The notes below the pieces were generated by a model. The model had not been told where the DNA came from, made no database searches, and was given only the letters and a program-made list of their open reading frames with translations. A program made the translations under genes and the position numbers. From UHGV virus genome UHGV-0237462: a DNA stretch of 30,991 nucleotides; one strand, 5' to 3'. This stretch comes from a virus. Positions 214 through 28,885 of the stretch are shown in pieces (the first letter of the stretch is position 1; each line of letters begins with the position of its first letter).

Positions 214-927
214 ATGGACTTCAACCTGAACAAAAAAATGCCAGTTAATAGATATCTTGTGATAATAGTTTTTGTCCTTTTCATCTTAGCCTGTATGCAG
301 TTTATTTATCTTTGCCTTCGTTCATTAAGCATTGCCCCAAACTATACGGGGACTGTAAGTGACATTATAATAGCTACAACAAATATTATTTTAGCTACCT
401 ACGCCGTTCGTGCATTCAAAAACTTATTTAAAGATAAACTATCCGATAATGCCATTAGTAAAATAGATACAGCATTGATGTCTCTCGATGATTGCATAGA
501 TAGTTTTTCAAGCTTATTTTTAAATATGACACTTATTAAGATTTATAAAAACACTAATAACCCCAAGGACCCTCAGTTAGTTAAACAGCTCGATGAAGCA
601 GCAAAAAACATTGAAAAAGCAACAAGTTCAGCCTACAAGGCAAGATCTATAATTGGCTCATTAACTCGTTGGAATATAAGCTTAAACACAGAAAAAGGAA
701 TAAGACTAAACCAACTTACCACTGATGTTTTTGAGTTAGGCATGCAGGCAACAAATATGTATATCGCACTAATAAATGAAATAAACCCTAACTCCCCATA
801 CAACTCTTTAACTCATAGACCATTTGATGAGTTATTTAACGAATTTAATGAAGAAAGGACCAGAGTTGAAGACGAAAGCAATGAATTAAAAGAGTTCTCT
901 ATTCATGAAATATTTAAAATCAAATAA
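214..927 (+). CDS. AT-rich hypothetical membrane-anchored protein (237 aa); cargo gene between att and ogr
   Basis: ATG at 214 with GAGG 5 nt upstream; strongly hydrophobic segment near N-terminus (YLVIIVFVLFILACMQFIYLCL); no recognisable catalytic motif; composition visibly far more AT-rich than the phage backbone. Confidence 0.6.
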   Translation: MDFNLNKKMPVNRYLVIIVFVLFILACMQFIYLCLRSLSIAPNYTGTVSDIIIATTNIILATYAVRAFKNLFKDKLSDNAISKIDTALMSLDDCIDSFSSLFLNMTLIKIYKNTNNPKDPQLVKQLDEAAKNIEKATSSAYKARSIIGSLTRWNISLNTEKGIRLNQLTTDVFELGMQATNMYIALINEINPNSPYNSLTHRPFDELFNEFNEERTRVEDESNELKEFSIHEIFKIK

Positions 928-8293: not shown

Positions 8294-8860
8294 TCAGGGG
8301 GATTCATTACTCTTATTTGCCGGAAATTTTCTATAAATGGTAGAAACGCCTACATCAAAAATCAGTGCAATACGCTGTCTTGATTCTCCGGCCTCGAGTA
8401 AACGCCCAATCTGTGCCCACTGTTTGGTGGTCAACTTAGGACGGCGTCCACCTACTCTGCCTTTGGCACGAGCTGCAGCCAGCCCTGCCCTAGTACGTTC
8501 AACTATCAGTTCGCGTTCCATTTCAGCCAGGGCCCCCATGACATGAAAAAAGAAACGGCCCATTGGGGTGCTGGTATCAATACTGTCAGTCAGGCTTCGG
8601 AAATTCACGCCACGCTGACGCAACTCTTCTATCAGCGTAACAAGATGCCGCATACTGCGCCCCAACCTGTCTAGCTTCCAGACAACCAGCGTGTCTCCTG
8701 CCGATAGTGTCCTGAGCAGTTTTTTCAGCCCCGGTCTGTCGGACTTAGTGCCACTGATTTTATCCTCAAAAATCCGCTCACATCCCGCGCAGTTCAGTGC
8801 ATTACGTTGCAAATCGGTGTTCTGGTCATTTGTTGACACGCGTACATAGCCAATAAGCAT
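8294..8860 (-). CDS. Serine-recombinase DNA invertase (Gin/Pin/Hin/Cin family)
   Basis: 188 aa; N-terminus MLIGYVRVSTNDQNTDLQRNAL and GRFFFHVMGALAEMERELI are near-identical to Gin/Hin invertases as I recall them; C-terminal HTH. Confidence 0.9.
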   Translation of the reverse strand: MLIGYVRVSTNDQNTDLQRNALNCAGCERIFEDKISGTKSDRPGLKKLLRTLSAGDTLVVWKLDRLGRSMRHLVTLIEELRQRGVNFRSLTDSIDTSTPMGRFFFHVMGALAEMERELIVERTRAGLAAARAKGRVGGRRPKLTTKQWAQIGRLLEAGESRQRIALIFDVGVSTIYRKFPANKSNESP

Positions 8861-8915
8861 GATTATCCCCCTGAATAAAAACCGGGGATGATGCCAGTTA
8901 GCTGTTACCTCTGCA

Positions 8916-8941
8916 TTTTCTTAAACGTTGGTTTGGGAGAA
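8916..8941. repeat. Left (invertase-proximal) 26-bp inversion crossover site
   Basis: TTTTCTTAAACG TT GGTTTGGGAGAA: 12-bp half-sites around a 2-bp core, gix/hix/cix-like; the inner half-site is the exact reverse complement of the inner half-site of the partner at 10512..10537. Confidence 0.7.
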
Positions 8942-9271
8942 GCCAGATATATCATTCAGCGAGGAGCTAATGCCAATGGTGCATGGATTCGCTGGTCAGA
9001 TGGTGCAATAGAAGTCTTTGGAACGGGTGGGTCTAATGATAATGGACTGGCTAAAGTCGTTTACCCAATTGCACTGCCTAAACTTTCACGTTTTATCAGT
9101 ATCGCGGAAAGAATAAGAACAGATTACGAGAGCACACCTAATAATGTTCACGTTTCAATGATCGTGGATGATCAGGTAACAAATACCGGTTTTTATGCCC
9201 GCTGCCAGATGTACGACGGCAGACCATCATCAAATGCTTTTTCCTGGAGGGTTTATTGTGCGCCTGTTTAA
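8930..9271 (+). CDS. Silent alternative tail-fibre C-terminal cassette (no own start; would fuse to the H constant region after inversion)
   Basis: Open frame from the crossover core to TAA at 9269-9271; the codon phase at the core (G TT) matches the phase of H at the partner core (C TT), so inversion would give an in-frame H constant part plus 113 new C-terminal residues beginning GLGEARY. Confidence 0.6.
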   Translation, partial: GLGEARYIIQRGANANGAWIRWSDGAIEVFGTGGSNDNGLAKVVYPIALPKLSRFISIAERIRTDYESTPNNVHVSMIVDDQVTNTGFYARCQMYDGRPSSNAFSWRVYCAPV

Positions 9272-20015: not shown

Positions 20016-21782
20016 ATGAACACCACACTGACACCCGCAGATCTCGATCCCCGTCGGCAAGCCATGCTGCTGTACTTTCAGGGATACCGCGTAGCCCGCA
20101 TTGCTGAAATGCTGGGCGAGAAAGTTGCAACCGTTCACAGCTGGAAAAAACGCGACAAGTGGGGTGACTATGGGCCGCTGGATCAGATGCAGCTCACCAC
20201 CGCCGCACGTTACTGCCAGCTCATTATGAAGGAGCACAAAGAAGGGAAAGATTTCAAAGAAATTGATCTGCTGGCGCGCCAGTCGGAGCGCCACGCGCGG
20301 ATCGGCAAGTTTAACAATGGCGGCAACGAAGCCGATTTAAACCCTAACGTCGCCAACCGCAACAAAGGCCCGCGCCGTCAGCCTGAAAAGAATGTTTTCA
20401 CCGATGAACAGATTGAGAAGCTGGAAGAAATCTTCCATTCCTCCATGTTCAACTACCAGCGTCACTGGTGGGAAGCCGGAAAAACCAACCGCATCCGCAA
20501 CCTGCTGAAGTCACGCCAGATCGGCGCAACCTTCTATTTTGCCCGTGAAGCCCTGATTGACGCCCTGCTAACCGGACGTAACCAGATTTTCCTTTCTGCC
20601 AGTAAGGCACAGGCGCACGTCTTTAAGCAGTACATCATCGACTTCGCCAAAGAAGTGGATGTGGAGCTGAAAGGCGATCCGATGGTGCTTCCCAACGGGG
20701 CCACACTGTATTTCCTCGGCACCAATGCCCGCACTGCCCAGAGTTACCACGGTAACCTGTATCTGGATGAATATTTCTGGATACCGAAATTCCAGGAGCT
20801 GCGCAAAGTGGCATCCGGTATGGCTATTCACAAAAAATGGCGACAAACCTATTTTTCCACGCCATCCAGCCTGACACACAGTGCTTATCCGTTCTGGTCC
20901 GGTGCGCTGTTCAACCGTGGGCGCAACAAAGCCGATAAGGTGGACATCGACCTGTCCCACAACAATCTGGCCCCCGGCCTGCTGTGCGCAGACGGGCAAT
21001 ACCGCCAGATAGTCACCGTGGAAGATGCGGTGCGCGGCGGATGTAACCTGTTCGATCTCGACCAGTTGCGCATGGAGTACAGCCCGGACGAATACCAGAA
21101 CCTGCTGATGTGCGAGTTCGTGGACGATCTCGCGTCCGTGTTCCCGCTCAGCGAACTGCAGGCGTGCATGGTGGACAGCTGGGAAGTCTGGACCGACTTT
21201 CATGCACTGGCCCTGCGCCCGTTTGGCTGGCGCGAAGTGTGGATCGGTTATGACCCGGCAAAAGGTACGCAGAACGGCGACAGTGCCGGATGCGTGGTGG
21301 TGGCTCCGCCAGCCGTGCCGGGTGGTAAGTTCCGCATTCTTGAGCGTCACCAGTGGCGCGGGATGGACTTCCGCGCCCAGGCTGACGCCATCAAAAAACT
21401 GACCGAACAGTATAACGTGACCTATATCGGTATCGACTCGACCGGCGTCGGTCACGGGGTTTACGAGAACGTGAAAGCGTTTTTTCCTGCCGTCAGGGAG
21501 TTTGTCTATAACCCCAACATTAAAAACGCCCTGGTACTCAAGGCCTACGACATTATCAGCCACCGCCGTCTGGAGTTTGACGCCGGGCACACCGACATTG
21601 CGCAGTCATTTATGGCAATCCGTCGCGCTACCACTGCCAGTGGCAACCGCCCGACCTATGAAGCCAGCCGCAGCGAAGAAGCCAGCCATGCCGATCTGGC
21701 CTGGGCAACAATGCACGCACTGTTTAACGAACCGCTGCAGGGCGAGTCCGCCAATACCAGCAATATTGTGGAGATTTTTTGA
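20016..21782 (+). CDS. P: Terminase large subunit (ATPase/nuclease) gpP
   Basis: 588 aa; P2 gpP-like; divergent from O. Confidence 0.9.
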   Translation: MNTTLTPADLDPRRQAMLLYFQGYRVARIAEMLGEKVATVHSWKKRDKWGDYGPLDQMQLTTAARYCQLIMKEHKEGKDFKEIDLLARQSERHARIGKFNNGGNEADLNPNVANRNKGPRRQPEKNVFTDEQIEKLEEIFHSSMFNYQRHWWEAGKTNRIRNLLKSRQIGATFYFAREALIDALLTGRNQIFLSASKAQAHVFKQYIIDFAKEVDVELKGDPMVLPNGATLYFLGTNARTAQSYHGNLYLDEYFWIPKFQELRKVASGMAIHKKWRQTYFSTPSSLTHSAYPFWSGALFNRGRNKADKVDIDLSHNNLAPGLLCADGQYRQIVTVEDAVRGGCNLFDLDQLRMEYSPDEYQNLLMCEFVDDLASVFPLSELQACMVDSWEVWTDFHALALRPFGWREVWIGYDPAKGTQNGDSAGCVVVAPPAVPGGKFRILERHQWRGMDFRAQADAIKKLTEQYNVTYIGIDSTGVGHGVYENVKAFFPAVREFVYNPNIKNALVLKAYDIISHRRLEFDAGHTDIAQSFMAIRRATTASGNRPTYEASRSEEASHADLAWATMHALFNEPLQGESANTSNIVEIF

Positions 21783-22816
21783 TGGGAAAGAGTAAGAAGA
21801 ACCGCGCTGCGTCGACGAAACAGATCCAGCATAAAGGCCAGACTTCAGCCGAAGCATTCAGCTTCGGTGATCCCGTTCCTGTTCTGGACCGCCGCGAACT
21901 GCTGGACTATGTGGAATGCGTACAGATGGATCGTTGGTATGAGCCGCCTGTGAGTTTCGACGGACTGGCGCGAACCTTCCGCGCCGCCGTGCATCACAGC
22001 TCACCGATTGCAGTGAAGTGCAACATTCTAACCAGCACCTACATCCCTCACCCGCTGCTCAGCCAGCAGGCTTTTTCGCGTTTTGTACAGGACTATCTGG
22101 TTTTTGGTAACGCCTACCTGGAGAAACGCACTAACCGCTTCGGTGAAGTTATCGCCCTTGAGCCTGCACTGGCAAAATACACCCGACGCGGGTTAGACCT
22201 GGATACCTACTGGTTTGTGCAATACGGCATGACTACGCAGCCGTATCAGTTCACGAAAGGCAACATTTTTCATCTGATGGAACCGGACATCAACCAGGAG
22301 ATCTACGGCCTGCCCGGTTATCTTTCTGCCATTCCGTCAGCTCTGCTCAACGAGTCCGCCACGCTGTTCCGCCGCAAGTATTACATTAACGGCAGTCATG
22401 CAGGCTTCATCATGTACATGACCGATGCAGCGCAGAACCAGGAGGATGTGAACAACCTCCGCAATGCGATGAAAAGCGCCAAAGGTCCTGGTAACTTCCG
22501 TAACCTGTTTATGTACTCGCCTAACGGTAAAAAGGACGGGCTTCAGATTATCCCGTTGTCAGAAGTGGCGGCGAAGGATGAGTTCCTGAATATCAAGAAC
22601 GTGAGCCGGGACGACATGATGGCGGCGCATCGTGTGCCGCCACAAATGATGGGGATAATGCCTAATAATGTCGGGGGGTTTGGGGATGTGGAGAAGGCCA
22701 GTCGCGTATTTGTACGTAATGAATTAACGCCCTTGCAAAAAAGGCTACAAGAGCTGAACGACTGGCTGGGCGAAGAAGTGATTAAATTTACGCCCTATAT
22801 TCTTTCAGAAGAATAA
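21782..22816 (+). CDS. Q: Portal protein gpQ
   Basis: ATG at 21782 overlapping the P stop (TGATG); 344 aa from this start. Confidence 0.9.
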   Translation: MGKSKKNRAASTKQIQHKGQTSAEAFSFGDPVPVLDRRELLDYVECVQMDRWYEPPVSFDGLARTFRAAVHHSSPIAVKCNILTSTYIPHPLLSQQAFSRFVQDYLVFGNAYLEKRTNRFGEVIALEPALAKYTRRGLDLDTYWFVQYGMTTQPYQFTKGNIFHLMEPDINQEIYGLPGYLSAIPSALLNESATLFRRKYYINGSHAGFIMYMTDAAQNQEDVNNLRNAMKSAKGPGNFRNLFMYSPNGKKDGLQIIPLSEVAAKDEFLNIKNVSRDDMMAAHRVPPQMMGIMPNNVGGFGDVEKASRVFVRNELTPLQKRLQELNDWLGEEVIKFTPYILSEE

Positions 22817-22824
22817 TTCCGAAC

Positions 22825-23523
22825 TTATTTGTTTCTTCTTTGTTCACGCCTTGTCTTGGCTTCGATAAGGCGTTGAGGTTCAGTGTAAAGCCGTTCTAAA
22901 AAAAGATAGGTAAAATCTTCAAGATCCTCAGCAGCAGCTTTATCCAAAATACCTTCATGCGCTCCATCATTTCCGTCATCTTTAACGCATTCAGCTAGTT
23001 CCCTTAAAGCTTCAGGCAGTAGATGATTATCAAATAACCACTCCATTCTTAACCCTAGGCTTCTCCTTATTTTTTGCGCAGGCCCTTGCTCCCCATCAGG
23101 AAGAAGTCCTTTTGTGGCATAATCAAGGCAAAGCCTAAACATGGTTGCTGCTGCATTATAACAACCTATAGCCAAACATTTCGCCCCTTCCTCATATGCA
23201 CTATTGATATGCTCAGGTAAGAACTCTGGTGGCTCCTCTACTGCTAAGTCTGCCGGTGATATAGGTCTAACAACCTCTGCAACTTCCTTTAAGCCGAATA
23301 TTCCACTTTCCCAATTATAGCCATCTAAAGTTTTATTTTTCGTTAAAGGTCTGCAAAGAAAAATTGTCGTTTTATGACACTCTCGGCAAACACAATAGAC
23401 CTCGTACTCGTATGTTTTACCCCCGCCCAATGCATTGTAAACCCTAGTGCAATTCAGCCCATTAACATCAAACGCTATTTTTTGTGATCCACATCGTGGA
23501 CAGTCATCCACTAACATAACCAT
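22825..23523 (-). CDS. Cargo protein: N-terminal zinc ribbon plus C-terminal helical domain resembling DUF4145 (possible HEPN-like effector), 232 aa
   Basis: ATG at 23523 with GGGAGGAG 8 nt upstream; CPRC ... CVCREC four-Cys ribbon; C-terminal half shows the pattern I associate with DUF4145 (..GNDGAHEG.. flanked by amphipathic helices); sits between cos and the 3' end of Q, converging on Q with an 8-bp gap. Confidence 0.65.
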   Translation of the reverse strand: MVMLVDDCPRCGSQKIAFDVNGLNCTRVYNALGGGKTYEYEVYCVCRECHKTTIFLCRPLTKNKTLDGYNWESGIFGLKEVAEVVRPISPADLAVEEPPEFLPEHINSAYEEGAKCLAIGCYNAAATMFRLCLDYATKGLLPDGEQGPAQKIRRSLGLRMEWLFDNHLLPEALRELAECVKDDGNDGAHEGILDKAAAEDLEDFTYLFLERLYTEPQRLIEAKTRREQRRNK

Positions 23524-23633
23524 GTCAATTACTCCTCCCTATGAAAAAAATGAGTTGAAAAATTGAATATTCACGACTTAAAAAGCTAGCCTATTTAACA
23601 CCATAATTTCATTAATTCAACCATGAGCGCGCG

Positions 23634-23652
23634 CTCGTATCCCCGCCACGCC
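23634..23652 (-). other. Probable cos site (19-nt cohesive end region)
   Basis: Minus-strand GGCGTGGCGGGGATACGAG followed by CGCGCGCTCATGG resembles my recollection of the P2 and 186 cohesive ends (GGCG.GGCGGGGA.. then .GCGCGCT.A.GG); location between A-side genes and Q is as expected. Confidence 0.5.
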
Positions 23653-23693
23653 TGCCCGCTTTATGTAGCGGTTTTCATGCGCCTGCATGACAT

Positions 23694-23721
23694 AAGCAAA
23701 AGCCCGCCACTCCTGGCGGGC
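23694..23721 (-). terminator. Rho-independent terminator ending the right-arm transcript just before cos
   Basis: Stem GCCCGCCA (23702-23709) / TGGCGGGC (23714-23721), loop CTCC; on the minus strand followed by TTTTGCTT. Confidence 0.6.
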
Positions 23722-23812: not shown

Positions 23813-24424
23813 CTACGTAACCACAGTTAATGTGTGCATCCTGTCTCGAATTGCATCACACGTCTCATCAAAAAGCTTGGTGATGGTTGTACGGTTCAAC
23901 TCCGCCTCTTTCCAATAATTTTGCCCGTCAAATTCTGGATCGCTATGCTTAAACGATATTGACTCTGAAAGGCATTCCTTCCGGAAACGGTCCAAGATTA
24001 TATAAACCTCTGGTGAGATGAACGGTTTGTTAGATTCAACACTTGTAACAAAAGTATTAAATGCATCAAAAAAAACTTTCAACCTTCTAAATTTTCTCTC
24101 TTCAAATGGTTCGTTGGGGTCAACATGATCCAGCGCAGGCCTCAGCTTAAGCACGCTTTCTCTGGTTTCAAACATCGAATTCCAAATGAGACTATATGCT
24201 GATAACTCCTTATCAAAATACGCTTTCGTTACATAAACAGAATTGTCTAACTTAGCCTTTATTCTTTCATTAGTTGCACTCAGTTGTGATTGAAATTCAG
24301 CAATATCTTTGTTTAGCCGCGACTTATATCTTTCTAAATAAACTTTCCCGATCCAAACAAATATGCTAGATGCAACAAAAGACACCCCACCCAACGAAGC
24401 CAGAACTTTAAAGACTAAATCCAT
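23813..24424 (-). CDS. AT-rich cargo protein, N-terminal TM anchor plus soluble helical domain, 203 aa
   Basis: ATG at 24424 with GGTGGGGG upstream; hydrophobic N-terminus (VLASLGGVSFVASSIFVWIG); own consensus -10 upstream and terminator downstream; visibly AT-rich. Confidence 0.65.
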   Translation of the reverse strand: MDLVFKVLASLGGVSFVASSIFVWIGKVYLERYKSRLNKDIAEFQSQLSATNERIKAKLDNSVYVTKAYFDKELSAYSLIWNSMFETRESVLKLRPALDHVDPNEPFEERKFRRLKVFFDAFNTFVTSVESNKPFISPEVYIILDRFRKECLSESISFKHSDPEFDGQNYWKEAELNRTTITKLFDETCDAIRDRMHTLTVVT

Positions 24425-24806: not shown

Positions 24807-25040
24807 TTAGTGCAGCCAGCTGTCGTCTTCCCAAACCTGTTGCATAATTTCCATCACCCGCTTTTTGTCTTCATCAAGCTTTAAGCCACTCAGCTCAACG
24901 CCGTTTGCCGACCCTTTACGGATGCGGATAGCGGTCTTGGGATAGATGGGTTGCAGGTTGCGGTAAAGCTCGGACTCCAGAGCGTCTAAGGTAGACTGGC
25001 TAATCTTCTGCTCTTTATCGATCATTATTTCAATGCGCAT
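24807..25040 (-). CDS. DinI-family protein (77 aa); likely the C-terminal module of a Tum-like SOS antirepressor
   Basis: MRIEIMIDKEQKISQSTLDALESELYRNLQ...WEDDSW aligns along its length with E. coli DinI as I recall it. Confidence 0.7.
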   Translation of the reverse strand: MRIEIMIDKEQKISQSTLDALESELYRNLQPIYPKTAIRIRKGSANGVELSGLKLDEDKKRVMEIMQQVWEDDSWLH

Positions 25041-25050
25041 AAAAGTCACC

Positions 25051-25239
25051 TCAGCTGATGACATCCATTGAGCGGTTGTATTCGTGGCTTCTGATTTTTG
25101 CCATGAGTTCATCAGTCAATTCAGAAACCCACTGCAGGGCCAGCCCCTTCTCTTCATCACTACACTCACTAGCCGCTACAAGCTTAAGAAAAAAATCAAT
25201 GCGCTGGAGCTTCAAAGACTCCAAAAAATAGTCCTGCAT
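25051..25239 (-). CDS. Small protein (62 aa) immediately downstream of the LexA box; possible N-terminal part of a split Tum-like antirepressor
   Basis: ATG at 25239 with GGAGG 4 nt upstream; the stop lies 11 nt before the DinI-like start. Confidence 0.5.
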   Translation of the reverse strand: MQDYFLESLKLQRIDFFLKLVAASECSDEEKGLALQWVSELTDELMAKIRSHEYNRSMDVIS

Positions 25240-25280
25240 CTTTCCTCCTATGACACCGCAAACAATACTGTATAGATAAC

Positions 25281-25300
25281 CACTGTTTATATTTACAGTA
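25281..25300. promoter_or_regulatory. LexA (SOS) box
   Basis: CACTGTTTATATTTACAGTA contains CTGT-N8-ACAG with an AT-rich spacer; centred about 51 bp upstream of the 62-aa ORF. Confidence 0.65.
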
Positions 25301-25392
25301 TATAATAATCTTACTGATGTAAAACGTTTTTTTACGTTCATCAGCCTGATATGCCTGGTATTATTAAGAGCACGAATTGTTAACCCGCGTAA

Positions 25393-27807
25393 TTAATACA
25401 GGTTCCGCCACTTATCATCTTCCTGCAAACGCTGGTTCCGATAGAAGACACGCAGGCCTGCTCCTGACGGAATACTGCCGCCGCGAAGGAGTAAATCGAC
25501 CTCTTTCTCGCTGCCATCAAATCCTCTGGACTTCAGTTCATAGACGAGCTGCTGTCGTTGATGGTCTGTAATTCGCTGTTTGTAGTCTCTACGCCGTTTC
25601 GGTTTCACCAGGCGTAACCTTGCAGCCAGTTCCCGGCGCTCTTTTTTGTTCATACTGTGCAGGTAATCGTGCAACTCCTTGTCATCCATGTGGGTAATGT
25701 CCGTTCTGGTATCCCCATCAGCTGATTTGTCTTTCCCTTGTTGGTTCAAATTTTCAGCAAGGGGACAGTTATTGCCACGAGTCCAAGGGGCGCAAGCGCC
25801 CTGGTCGGCAGCCGCCTCCTGAACGTCAACGGCCTTACGAACCATTTTCCACTTCACTGCATGAGTGCAGATCTTGCCCTCTGCAATGGGTGACCAGATG
25901 CCATAAATACGAATACCGTGATCGCCATAGGCGGTTGGCTCTTCGTTGATTTCATAAGCGGTTCTGATGAGGTGATATTTGCGGGGAACCAGTACGCCGC
26001 CCTGCTTCATGATGTAGGTGGCAAAACAACCAGCATCAGCAGCAGCCAGGATGGCATCAAGGCGCGGGTTATCCAGTACCGGCGCACCTGCTTTTTTGTC
26101 ACCCTGTTGCCTTGCCGCCTGACCAGCCAGCAATCGCAGTTCACGGTAAGCCTGACGCCCCGGAATGCCAAAGAAGCGGAATTGCTGAACACGATGCAGA
26201 GACGCCCAGGCATTAACGTATTCAGCGTTATCACGCAGGGATTTACCCGTTTCCTTACTGATCTCGCCAGCCAGACCACGCCCGTCAATATTCTTACTGA
26301 TATATTTCGCAATGTAGCTTGTCGGCGTTCCTTTGCGCGGGTTTATCAGCTCAGACTTAAAGCGTGGCCCCGTGTTATTGCCCAGCTCCTCGCGGTCTTC
26401 TCGGATGGCAAACTTACGCAACAATGCAGTAATGGCGCGGCGGTCTTTTTTGCGCATGAAACACAACAGGTGCCAGTGAACTGTGCCGTCATGATGCGGC
26501 TCAGCCACCCGCACGCCATACCAGCGCAACCCGGCTTTGTGCATAGCCTTACGAAATGCAGCAAACATGCCGACCAGATAATCGCTGCTTTGTCTTACTG
26601 TCGCGTTGGTCCAGGTCGGGTTTGGCCTGCCGTTATTTAGCGTGGAATGGAAACGTGACGGACAGGTGATGGTGTAGAAAACGGCGCAGTCACCACGCAT
26701 TTCCGCGATAAGCTCCAGGCCTTTAACACAGGCCATCATCTCGTTGCGGCGATGCGCCGGGTTGCTGCTGCTGGCGTTTACCACATCCTCCATGTTCAGC
26801 GTGTCGCCGTCTTCGTTCACCAGTTCATGAGAACGGAAAAACTCCAGCGACTTACGGCGCTGCTCACGTTTATGCATCACGGCTTCATAGCTGACATAGG
26901 GAGATGCTTTTTTGCTGACAAGGCAGACAGCACGCAACTGCTCTTCCCGCCATTCGCAACGCATCTTCCATAATTTCCGATACCACCAGTCGGCGCACAG
27001 CATACGCGCCAGCGAACCCGGAATGAGTTCATAAGGCACAGGTTTGCGGCGGTTTCTTTTCCGGCGGAGTTGCTCAAACGCAGGCGGTATGACATCCAGT
27101 CGCAGGGTTTCTGCAGCCACCTTTTCCCATGTCTTGCGGATTTCTTCTGGCTTAACATCATCGGAGGCGTACAAATCACCACAAGCGGCATCAAGACACA
27201 TGCTCATATGCGCAGCGACAAGGGTAGACAGGCGTTTCACCTGATCCTGACTCATTTCAGGCAGGATCAGCAGACCGTCCAGCCCTTCATGGCTTGCCAT
27301 AAAACGAAAAGATGCAGATAGCTGGCTGTCGCGTATATGCTCCAGTCGTTCCAGACATGGCTTAATCGTCTCACGCAAATAGCGGGAATAAGCCTTTGGC
27401 CTGCCCAGGCTGCTGAAATATTCAATACGTTGCATCAGCGGCTTGCTGATATGGGAAGGCTGGGCGTTGACGTCAGCCAGAATGACCATGTCTGGATTAA
27501 AACGCTGCTGCTCATGCGCCATCTTTGCCCGGCTAATGAGCTTATCCTGCTCCATTTCGCGTTGGACAGGATCACGGGATTCATTAAAGAAATAACGCTC
27601 CCAGACCTGATCACTCAGTGCCTCGCGGCGCAGTTGTTCCTGCTCGTTATCGGTAGCGTACAGAGTGATCAGGTTTGAAAGCGCAGAAACCGGCGCAACT
27701 TCCGCCGGGTCCAGATAAGGGTTAATGGCCTTTTTCGGGCTGTTCCATGAGAATGCTGCGGCGACCTTGTTAAAGCCGCTGCAGTTGTTCATATCAGCAT
27801 GGCTCAT
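25393..27807 (-). CDS. A: Replication initiation endonuclease gpA (rolling-circle)
   Basis: 804 aa; P2/186 A-like size and position; start overlaps the Dam stop (ATGA). Confidence 0.9.
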
Positions 27808-28661
27808 GCACGCACTCCGTACACGGCAGAACTATCCACGCCACGCGAAGGATCAAATCCCACCCAGCAGCGCGGCCCGGAAACAGCGATGATTTCTGTT
27901 GCAGATTTACTCTCACCAGCTGCTACACCGATGCTGCGTTTTGCCTTGATGTAGTGGTGAGTAAAATTGCGATACAGCGAACGGATCAGGGATGTATCAC
28001 TGTTAGAAACAATGACCGGATGTCCTTCTGATGACCGATGTTCAAGAACGGATGCCAGGTGATACTGGTCATCTTCAGTGAAACCATCAGTGTGATAGCC
28101 GGAAAACGTACCGTCATACGGCGGATCGCAATACACCACATCCCCCACCTGCAGCATCGCCAGCGTTTCATCAAAGCTTGCGCAGATAAACGTTGCACGC
28201 TGGGCTTTCTCTGCAAATGCGCGAATTTCTTTTTCAGGGAAATACGGATTTTTATAATTACCGTAGGGAATGTTGAAATGCCCGCTCTTGTTATAGCGAC
28301 ATAAACCACGGTAACCGTGACGATTGAGATACAGGAAATATACCGCTTTCATGAAATCAGTAATTTCAGTGGAGTAATTAAACTCCTGCCTTATGTTGTA
28401 ATAAGCCACCTCCCTGTTTGCGATCTCAAATAAAACTCTGGCGCGAGATATAAACGATTCACAATCAGAGGCAACCTTTTTATAGAGGTTGATTAAATCA
28501 GGATTAATATCCGCAACCAGATAGCTGGGGTAATCCGTCTCCATCATCACAGCACAGGAACCCGCGAAAGGTTCAACCAGTCGCGGGCCAGCAGGAAGGT
28601 GTTTTTTCAGTTCGGACATAATGGCGGTTTTATTTCCCGCCCATTTCAGGATGGTGCTCAT
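27804..28661 (-). CDS. dam: DNA adenine methyltransferase (Dam family)
   Basis: ATG at 28661 with GGAGG 6 nt upstream; N-terminal ILKWAGNK and catalytic DPPY motif (YCDPPYDG). Confidence 0.85.
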
Positions 28662-28885
28662 ACAGCACCTCCGTTGTAATGTTTGCCTTTCAGCTCTGCG
28701 ATTTCCTGACAGGTAATGCAAAGCTGCACACCCGGAATGGCACGGCGGCGTGCTGGCGGAATTGGCGCTTCACACTCAACGCAAAGCACGCGGGACACGC
28801 CCGGCGTTTTGGCACGGGCAGCACGGATATGACGTTGGCGTTCTTCTTCAACTCGCTGCTGTACGAGATCCATTGCATCAGCCAT
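28658..28885 (-). CDS. TraR/DksA-family C4 zinc-finger protein
   Basis: 75 aa; CVEC ... CITC four-Cys motif typical of TraR/DksA C-termini; stop overlaps the Dam start. Confidence 0.7.
   Translation of the reverse strand: MADAMDLVQQRVEEERQRHIRAARAKTPGVSRVLCVECEAPIPPARRRAIPGVQLCITCQEIAELKGKHYNGGAV

Follow-up and report, generated by a model that had tools for sequence, protein, structure and literature searches.

What is the function of a gene that encodes a zinc ribbon joined to a DUF4145 domain and lies between the cohesive-end site (cos) and the portal gene Q of a P2-type prophage? The question is raised by the virus genome UHGV-0237462, a stretch of 30,991 nucleotides, referred to here at its full length as the window, which is filled by such a prophage read opposite to the orientation of the P2 map. 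The gene encodes a protein of 232 amino acids (aa) and belongs to the accessory (cargo) content of the prophage, as a single-gene moron on the cos-Q side of a published defence hotspot. By analogy with a characterised system, the protein is probably a RAZR-type (PD-T7-4) HEPN RNase directed against phages. The gene itself is already on record, in the annotation of phage Cartapus and RefSeq and in the hotspot table of Rousset 2022; what is new here is that it belongs to a large sister family of RAZR whose members are uncharacterised. Judged from sequence, it appears to be a fairly ordinary but sound candidate defence gene, distantly related to RAZR.

Gene structure and distribution

The coding sequence starts with ATG and occupies positions 22825..23523 of the minus strand, opposite to Q (21779-22816, plus strand; Pfam Phage_portal), the conserved anchor of the slot, which is preceded by the terminase gene P (20016-21782, plus strand). 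The stop codons of Q and of the DUF4145 gene converge on a spacer of 8 bp (22817..22824) without a terminator. A strong Shine-Dalgarno sequence, GGGAGGAG (23532-23539, minus strand), is placed 8 nt 5' of the ATG, in agreement with the good ribosome-binding site reported in the first-pass annotation. The equivalent of the cos cohesive end, a 19-mer at 23634-23652 that reads GGCGTGGCGGGGATACGAG on the minus strand, is found ~110 bp 5' of the ATG. It is identical to P2 cosL at 14 of 19 positions and is embedded in a 150-bp cos region with 83-95% identity across 88 phage records; the record of phage Cartapus labels the same 150-bp stretch 'putative cos site'. The GC content is 0.415 for the open reading frame (ORF) and 0.405 for the whole interval from the Q stop to cos, against 0.52-0.56 for Q and P, and the GC content at third codon positions (GC3) is 0.31, compared with 0.62-0.68 for Q and P. 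The composition of the gene looks foreign, and coordinates and GC content both agree with the initial description of the interval as about 0.8 kb of lower-GC DNA that carries a 232-aa gene opposite Q.

The encoded protein shares 99.6% identity with CARTA_1, a 'DUF4145 domain-containing protein' from Escherichia phage Cartapus (Peduoviridae, genus Elveevirus), a prophage of E. coli LF82, in which CARTA_1 corresponds to WP_000245245.1 (LF82_788). With a query made up of the 3' end of Q, the DUF4145 gene and the cos region, 1278 of 5426 complete E. coli genomes match some part, and at least 42 have the locus with no less than 98% identity. A word-indexed search gave 606 full-length homologues of ~230 aa, and precomputed PF13643 annotation is present on nearly all of 120 homologues among the matches listed. 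An exhaustive profile search with a limit of E<=1e-3 gave 1914 cluster representatives (clustering at 50% identity), of which 229 reach E<=1e-30. Because so many full-length homologues and cluster representatives match, the ORF is not a product of chance. Homologues with ~50% identity adjoin an integrase in Pseudomonas and stand alone in Nitrospira, and a subfamily with 25% identity is located in the nin/toxin-antitoxin moron region of lambdoid phages of the Shiga toxin (Stx) type.

Domain architecture and conserved residues

The N-terminal Cys4 zinc ribbon (aa 1-59; 23347..23523, minus strand) has the pattern C8-x2-C11 ... C46-x2-C49, is all-β in the AF2 model and has a hypervariable hairpin tip (aa 21-40). 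A variable linker or insert (aa 60-100; 23224..23346, minus strand), the most variable stretch in the family, connects it to the C-terminal helical DUF4145/HEPN domain (aa 101-232; 22828..23223, minus strand). In the AF2 model (pLDDT 83.9) the N-terminal part is β-rich, with strands in 3-59 and 82-88, and the C-terminal part (104-231) is helical, with a predicted all-α HEPN fold. DUF4145 has been placed in the HEPN superfamily and fusions with zinc ribbons have been recorded (Anantharaman et al. 2013, PMC3710099). Membership of DUF4145, with a HEPN-like nature, had been suggested before any search was run; the Pfam match to PF13643 (E=4.5e-7, aa 114-203) scores 30.3 bits against a gathering score of 23.1, and the modelled fold supports the HEPN assignment.

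The conserved residues lie in both domains. In an alignment of 38 sequences C8, C11, C46, C49, R130 and G184-N-D-G-A-H189 are invariant, and across 113 cluster representatives the four cysteines, E112, R130, N185 and H189 are nearly so, with H189 kept in 109. The four-Cys ribbon and the helical C-terminal domain with a GNDGAH motif (184-189), both pointed out at the outset, are thus present here and nearly invariant in the family. The putative catalytic motif, K181-DDGNDGA-H189 (22957..22983, minus strand), has the form (R/K)-x7-H; among the 113 representatives its putative catalytic basic position, 181, holds R in 65, K in 37 and Q in 5. Catalytic motifs of the HEPN superfamily are of the R-x(4-6)-H type, and in DUF4145/RAZR the spacing is R-x7-H.

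Relation to RAZR

PD-T7-4 is the sole match to the protein among 5027 PADLOC profiles. The match is weak (E=9.1e-7, 26.5 bits) and aligns aa 36-200 of the protein to positions 39-165 of the 211 in the profile. The same profile matches 37 of 38 family members, with a best E of 3.6e-11, and in some members the match takes in both the zinc-finger and the HEPN parts. PD-T7-4 was obtained by functional selection as a single-gene abortive-infection system, 'Zn finger-HEPN' (Vassallo 2022, PMC9519451), and has carried the name RAZR since 2026 (Zhang ... Laub, Nature 2026, PMC13017515). RAZR consists of a Cys4 zinc-ribbon zinc-finger domain (ZFD) plus a DUF4145/HEPN RNase in which R146 and H154 are essential (PMC13017515); RAZR-Ec is RRL46918.1 of E. 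coli UMB1727 (PDB 9Y9C, 9Y6U). If the stretch that brings residue 200 to profile position 165 is ungapped, H189 would fall near profile position 154. Searches of a PDB sequence copy with the protein alone and, up to E=10, with the profile of the family returned no RAZR chain or relevant match.

The ZFD varies more than any other region of RAZR and sets its specificity (PMC13017515). In the present family, the ZFD and linker were compared with the HEPN domain, the portal and the terminase across six homologous prophages, with the window protein as reference. The ZFD and linker are 78, 78, 62, 59, 45 and 39% identical, while the values for the same prophages are 95, 95, 91, 88, 82 and 70% for HEPN, 88, 88, 86, 80, 86 and 62% for the portal and 94, 96, 97, 86, 92 and 68% for the terminase. 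In the Klebsiella prophage, for example, 45% for the ZFD and linker stands against 82% for HEPN, 86% for the portal and 92% for the terminase. The entropy profile of the 113 representatives agrees with this N-terminal variability.

These identities also bear on the possibility that the HEPN domain is catalytically dead, in which case the protein would be a decoy, sensor or regulator, or the gene a decaying passenger. R146A abolishes RAZR defence (PMC13017515), and in the present protein and its closest relatives the corresponding residue is K. Family members vary between K and R here, however, whereas H189, N185, R130 and E112 are nearly invariant; more than 40 E. coli genomes have the ORF in intact and highly conserved form, and the HEPN half keeps 70-95% identity while the ZFD drifts to 39%, which indicates strong constraint. 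A dead domain is therefore considered quite unlikely.

Several points weigh against a RAZR-type function. Lys181 occupies, in the present allele and its closest relatives, the position at which RAZR has an essential Arg, and none of the 10 family representatives tested matches the PD-T7-4 profile strongly. The match spans 164 protein residues against 127 profile positions, and the ~38 extra residues, which are likely in the linker at aa 60-100, mean that the N-terminal half may bind a different type of trigger or nucleic acid. The PHROGs assignment, phrog_1305, carries the label 'DNA binding protein'. The likeness to RAZR is drawn from the PD-T7-4 profile and the published description, no experiment on the protein or its family was found in the literature searched, and a portal-sensing effector inside a portal-making prophage raises a problem of self-activation. 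Because the PD-T7-4 match is weak, no representative matches strongly and ~38 residues are extra, the family is regarded as a sister of RAZR and not as its orthologue. POCJ13 gp20, PhiR12_3, PhiR5_2, Burkholderia phi644-2 and the 10 family representatives were considered as RAZR orthologues and rejected, their PD-T7-4 matches being weak or nil.

The cos-Q slot and the P2 defence hotspot

P2 lacks the DUF4145 gene and has no more than 167 bp, with the terminator tQ, between cosL and Q, so that for P2 the first-pass annotation is right in placing Q first inside the cos end. Relative to P2 the gene is additional cargo, but its location is not unusual, since the gpA-gpQ interval, which contains cos, is a published P2 defence hotspot (Rousset 2022, PMC9122126; Vassallo 2022, PMC9519451). 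With the replication gene A at 25393-27807 (minus strand), cos at 23634-23652 and Q at 21779-22816, the DUF4145 gene is inside this interval, beside cos. WP_000245245 appears in Table S5A of Rousset as part of 'hypothetical + hypothetical + DUF4145 + hypothetical + DinI' (PMC9122126), and no DUF4145 entry was found in Rousset's list of cloned systems.

The slot is regularly filled in relatives of the Fels-2/Elveevirus type that share the cos, which hold 0.6-2.9 kb of other cargo between cos and Q. It measures 1.86 kb in Fels-2, with a 565-aa AbiU/AIPR protein, 2.2 kb in SEN8, with a hypothetical protein and an HNH endonuclease, and 2.4 kb in KP12, with three hypothetical proteins; in Yersinia phage MLG42 it is only ~180 bp. 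The Fels-2 protein, STM2723.1 (L006 1240-2937), is annotated as hypothetical and matches PADLOC AbiU at E=2.7e-112 and Pfam AIPR at E=8.8e-43. Homologues of the DUF4145 protein with 57-88% identity occupy the same slot in P2-type prophages of other Enterobacteriaceae, Citrobacter, Dickeya, Klebsiella and Pantoea, where they are convergent with the portal gene, with stops 3-26 bp apart and cos ~110-130 bp 5' of the ATG. On the A side of cos, the cargo differs in each homologous prophage (GAPS4 genes; an 883-aa HSDR_N/S1 protein; YafO; HipA with HIRAN) and varies independently of the DUF4145 gene. A 203-aa neighbour across cos was considered as an operon partner and rejected, since the A-side cargo varies while the DUF4145 gene stays. 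The longer inter-stop gaps of 21-26 bp, in Klebsiella (L017 4703-4723) and Pantoea (L019 4703-4728), contain a short hairpin (GGCTCTTTAGAGCC; AGCGGCTCTTAGAGAGCCGCT) that is possibly a bidirectional terminator; the gaps of 3-8 bp in E. coli and Citrobacter contain no hairpin.

A portal-adjacent position kept from Escherichia to Pantoea at 57-88% identity is one of the arguments that the protein serves the phage's own life cycle and not defence, either as a nucleic-acid-binding or RNA-processing protein near cos and the portal gene, with a role in packaging or late expression, or as an RNase for host takeover or anti-defence. Nucleic-acid binding is common among zinc ribbons, and the phrog_1305 label points the same way. 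Such a role accords poorly with the absence of the gene from P2, with cos-sharing relatives that carry other cargo or none and with its presence in only ~42 of the 1278 E. coli genomes in which some of the Q-to-cos query is matched. Homologues also occur outside P2 contexts, beside the Pseudomonas integrase, in the Stx-phage moron region with nin and toxin-antitoxin genes, and alone in Nitrospira; the composition of the gene looks foreign, and the ZFD is hypervariable, as an arms-race domain would be. Expression in lysogens, described below, adds to these arguments, and a life-cycle role is judged unlikely. For annotation, the Q side of cos may be treated as a regular cargo slot in Fels-2/Elveevirus-type phages, and a 'DUF4145 domain-containing protein' at this position is readable as a candidate abortive-infection gene.

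Promoter, terminators and expression

The best sigma-70 promoter candidate that a hexamer scan finds in the interval is TTGAAT, a 16-nt spacer and TTAAAT (23592..23620, minus strand; 8/12), which is weak and no commoner than in shuffled sequence. Transcription would be expected to start near 23585. The variant read by eye at first, TTGAAT-17-TAAATA, scores 7/12 with a TG upstream and is not called by the consensus promoter scan. The -35-like TTGAAT is partly conserved in an alignment of upstream regions. The specific sigma-70 promoter that had been proposed is therefore not distinguishable from chance by the shuffles.

On the A side of cos, 3' of the 203-aa gene, a GC-rich terminator-like hairpin, GCCCGCCA-GGAG-TGGCGGGC followed by TTTTGCTT (23693..23720, minus strand; dG -26.4 kcal/mol, z -2.9), is conserved in related prophages and may act as a terminator or belong to the region by which cos is recognised. 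It escaped the terminator scanner, and a G-U stem extension that absorbs the T-run is suspected as the cause. The position of this hairpin 3' of the 203-aa gene suggests that the DUF4145 gene would need its own promoter. No terminator was found between the Q and DUF4145-gene stops in the window, and the only terminator-like match on the plus strand, which lies beyond cos at 23656-23671, is within chance expectation.

RNA-seq of E. coli LF82 (PMC9928086, S1 Table) provides expression values for the orthologue LF82_788/CARTA_1, given as log2 of fragments per kilobase per million (fpkm). The values are 4.65-4.71 in stationary LB, ~4-fold over the prophage background and just under the 5-fold moron cutoff of that paper, 7.0-7.6 in the B1/B6 samples, taken as cultures in Dulbecco's modified Eagle medium (DMEM), and 9.2-9.6 in the macrophage samples MB1/MB6 (MB6 being 6 h post-infection), while the adjacent portal and terminase genes are at 2.3-3.1 (portal 2.5-3.1) (PMC9928086). 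LF82_789, the orthologue of the 203-aa neighbour, reaches 7x background and is one of just two morons in Cartapus (PMC9928086), and part of the LF82_788 signal may come from read-through of LF82_789. The RNA-seq of the LF82 orthologue and the hairpin together suggest that the DUF4145 gene is transcribed independently while the late genes are silent. Transcription in lysogens of this kind speaks against a function in the phage's own life cycle.

Proposed mechanism and self-tolerance

For the present protein, homology to RAZR is the basis on which an RNase activity, a function against phages, a trigger and activation templated by rings are all proposed. RAZR alone is non-toxic even when overproduced, forms inactive linear oligomers and needs a phage trigger (PMC13017515). 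On activation, a 24-mer wraps phage rings of ~170 Å, either the dodecameric portals of T7, T3 and SECphi18 or an Erf-like 24-mer, and active RAZR cleaves single-stranded RNA non-specifically (PMC13017515). By analogy, the 232-aa protein would be made constitutively in the lysogen and be harmless alone. On infection by another phage, its hypervariable zinc ribbon would bind an oligomeric phage protein, as RAZR binds portal dodecamers and Erf-like rings, and binding would rearrange the HEPN dimers in such a way as to make the composite (R/K)181...H189 site active. Non-specific RNA cleavage would then stop translation, and the infected cell would release no phage (abortive infection), which would protect sister lysogens. 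Ring-templated activation specifically is a tentative part of this proposal, plausible but somewhat short of even odds. The description of the gene as a candidate abortive-infection effector, offered in the first-pass annotation, stands as far as it is cargo and a relative of an abortive-infection system (PD-T7-4/RAZR), with the function argued from homology; the notion that the site is unusual has to be given up.

The behaviour of RAZR also bears on another reading, in which the gene would not sense infection but would keep the prophage stable as an addiction element or stand-alone toxin. RAZR is non-toxic even when overproduced and requires a phage trigger, and the DUF4145 gene has no conserved partner, the portal gene being always on one side and cos with variable cargo on the other. 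An addiction element is thus very unlikely.

If the protein is an anti-phage sensor of the RAZR type, it poses the question of how a possible portal sensor tolerates the portal of its own prophage, which is made on induction. One answer would be that a portal-ring sensor is permanently linked to its own portal gene (3-26 bp, convergent) and that self-tolerance is built into the locus, an idea to which we give a low probability. Self-tolerance could be reached by either or both of two routes. The zinc ribbon might co-evolve with the adjacent gpQ allele, so as to ignore its own portal and detect foreign portal or recombinase rings. By the second route, late transcription of P-Q might run antisense through the DUF4145 gene, since there is no terminator after Q in the window, and silence it in the prophage's own lytic cycle. 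A simpler case would be a ZFD that does not bind gpQ. If self-tolerance is built in, the cos-Q slot, rather than receiving cargo at random, would be reserved for a 'sensor next to self-antigen' arrangement. More generally, if the homology to RAZR holds for function, the family would be a distinct large RAZR-type branch, with ~1900 clusters at 50% identity and with many members in P2-type prophages of Enterobacteriaceae, including that of the Crohn's-associated LF82, and it would add uncharacterised trigger specificities to a ring-assembly mechanism described only in 2026.

Other features of the prophage

The 203-aa protein across cos (23813-24424, minus strand) has a hydrophobic N-terminus, judged by eye, and a coiled-coil-like region. 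It matches phrog_26391 (function unassigned), some RefSeq records misname it 'valyl-tRNA synthetase', and a further role in exclusion or defence is possible. The stretch that separates A from the variable cargo, 24807-25341 (minus strand), holds a DinI-family gene (Pfam E=3.8e-24) and two short, conserved hypothetical genes, of phrog_698 and phrog_2100; in LF82 the genes of the DinI region rise strongly in macrophages, to log2 fpkm of up to ~11, with late genes silent (PMC9928086). A Dam-type orphan N6-adenine methyltransferase (27804-28721, minus strand; PADLOC oMTase E=1.4e-111) adjoins gene A and may protect the phage against restriction.

At the other end of the window, a serine recombinase/invertase (8294-8860, minus strand; Resolvase and HTH_7, E=2e-53) is located beside the tail-fibre genes, in the Z/fun slot of P2, the second P2 hotspot. 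It is probably part of a tail-fibre inversion (host-range switch) module. The adjoining 127-aa ORF (8888-9271, plus strand) gave no family match. A 237-aa ORF beyond the tail gene D (214-927, plus strand) has no Pfam or PADLOC match, and its region corresponds to the other expressed moron of Cartapus, LF82_783, 'putative exonuclease'.

Comparison with known systems

Of the systems that resemble the 232-aa protein in architecture, POCJ13 gp20, PhiR5_2 and PhiR12_3 (224 aa), from lambdoid Stx-type phages, have the same combination of zinc ribbon and DUF4145, with 25-26% full-length identity and an R-x7-H motif, RIDANKAVH. Their genes adjoin toxin-antitoxin and Ren-like exclusion genes in the moron region. 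They represent a different subfamily, phage type and slot, match PD-T7-4 more weakly still (E=1.4e-3) and are uncharacterised. DS-38 (HEP2, WP_001313577.1) is a validated E. coli defence protein with HEPN and a zinc finger, reported in the DefensePredictor study (PMC13092281), where its zinc-finger part is said to set it apart from PD-T7-4. Compared by description, DS-38 and the 232-aa protein share HEPN and a zinc finger; with another accession and 366 aa, DS-38 is not the same protein.

With respect to location, the cargo of Fels-2 (STM2723.1), SEN8 and KP12 is found in the identical slot from portal stop to cos and on the strand opposite Q, like the DUF4145 gene, although the proteins are unrelated to it. 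The cargo of P2 hotspot #1 (old, tin, 169 curated systems) is likewise located in gpA-gpQ, cos-proximal, low in GC, expressed from the prophage and swapped for other cargo in related phages. In contrast to old and tin of P2, which lie on the A side of cos, the DUF4145 gene is on the Q side, and it is absent from the systems tested by Rousset 2022 and Vassallo 2022.

RAZR is the closest point of comparison for the protein as a whole. The 232-aa protein differs from it in the Lys in place of Arg, in the weak profile likeness and in an inter-domain region that appears longer than that of the PD-T7-4 profile. Like RAZR, it is the product of a single gene of ~220-230 aa (~25 kDa) in which a Cys4 zinc ribbon is followed by a linker and a DUF4145/HEPN domain, the spacing from basic residue to His is the same (K/R181...H189 and R146...H154), variability in the family is greatest in the zinc-finger region, and the gene is carried on mobile elements.

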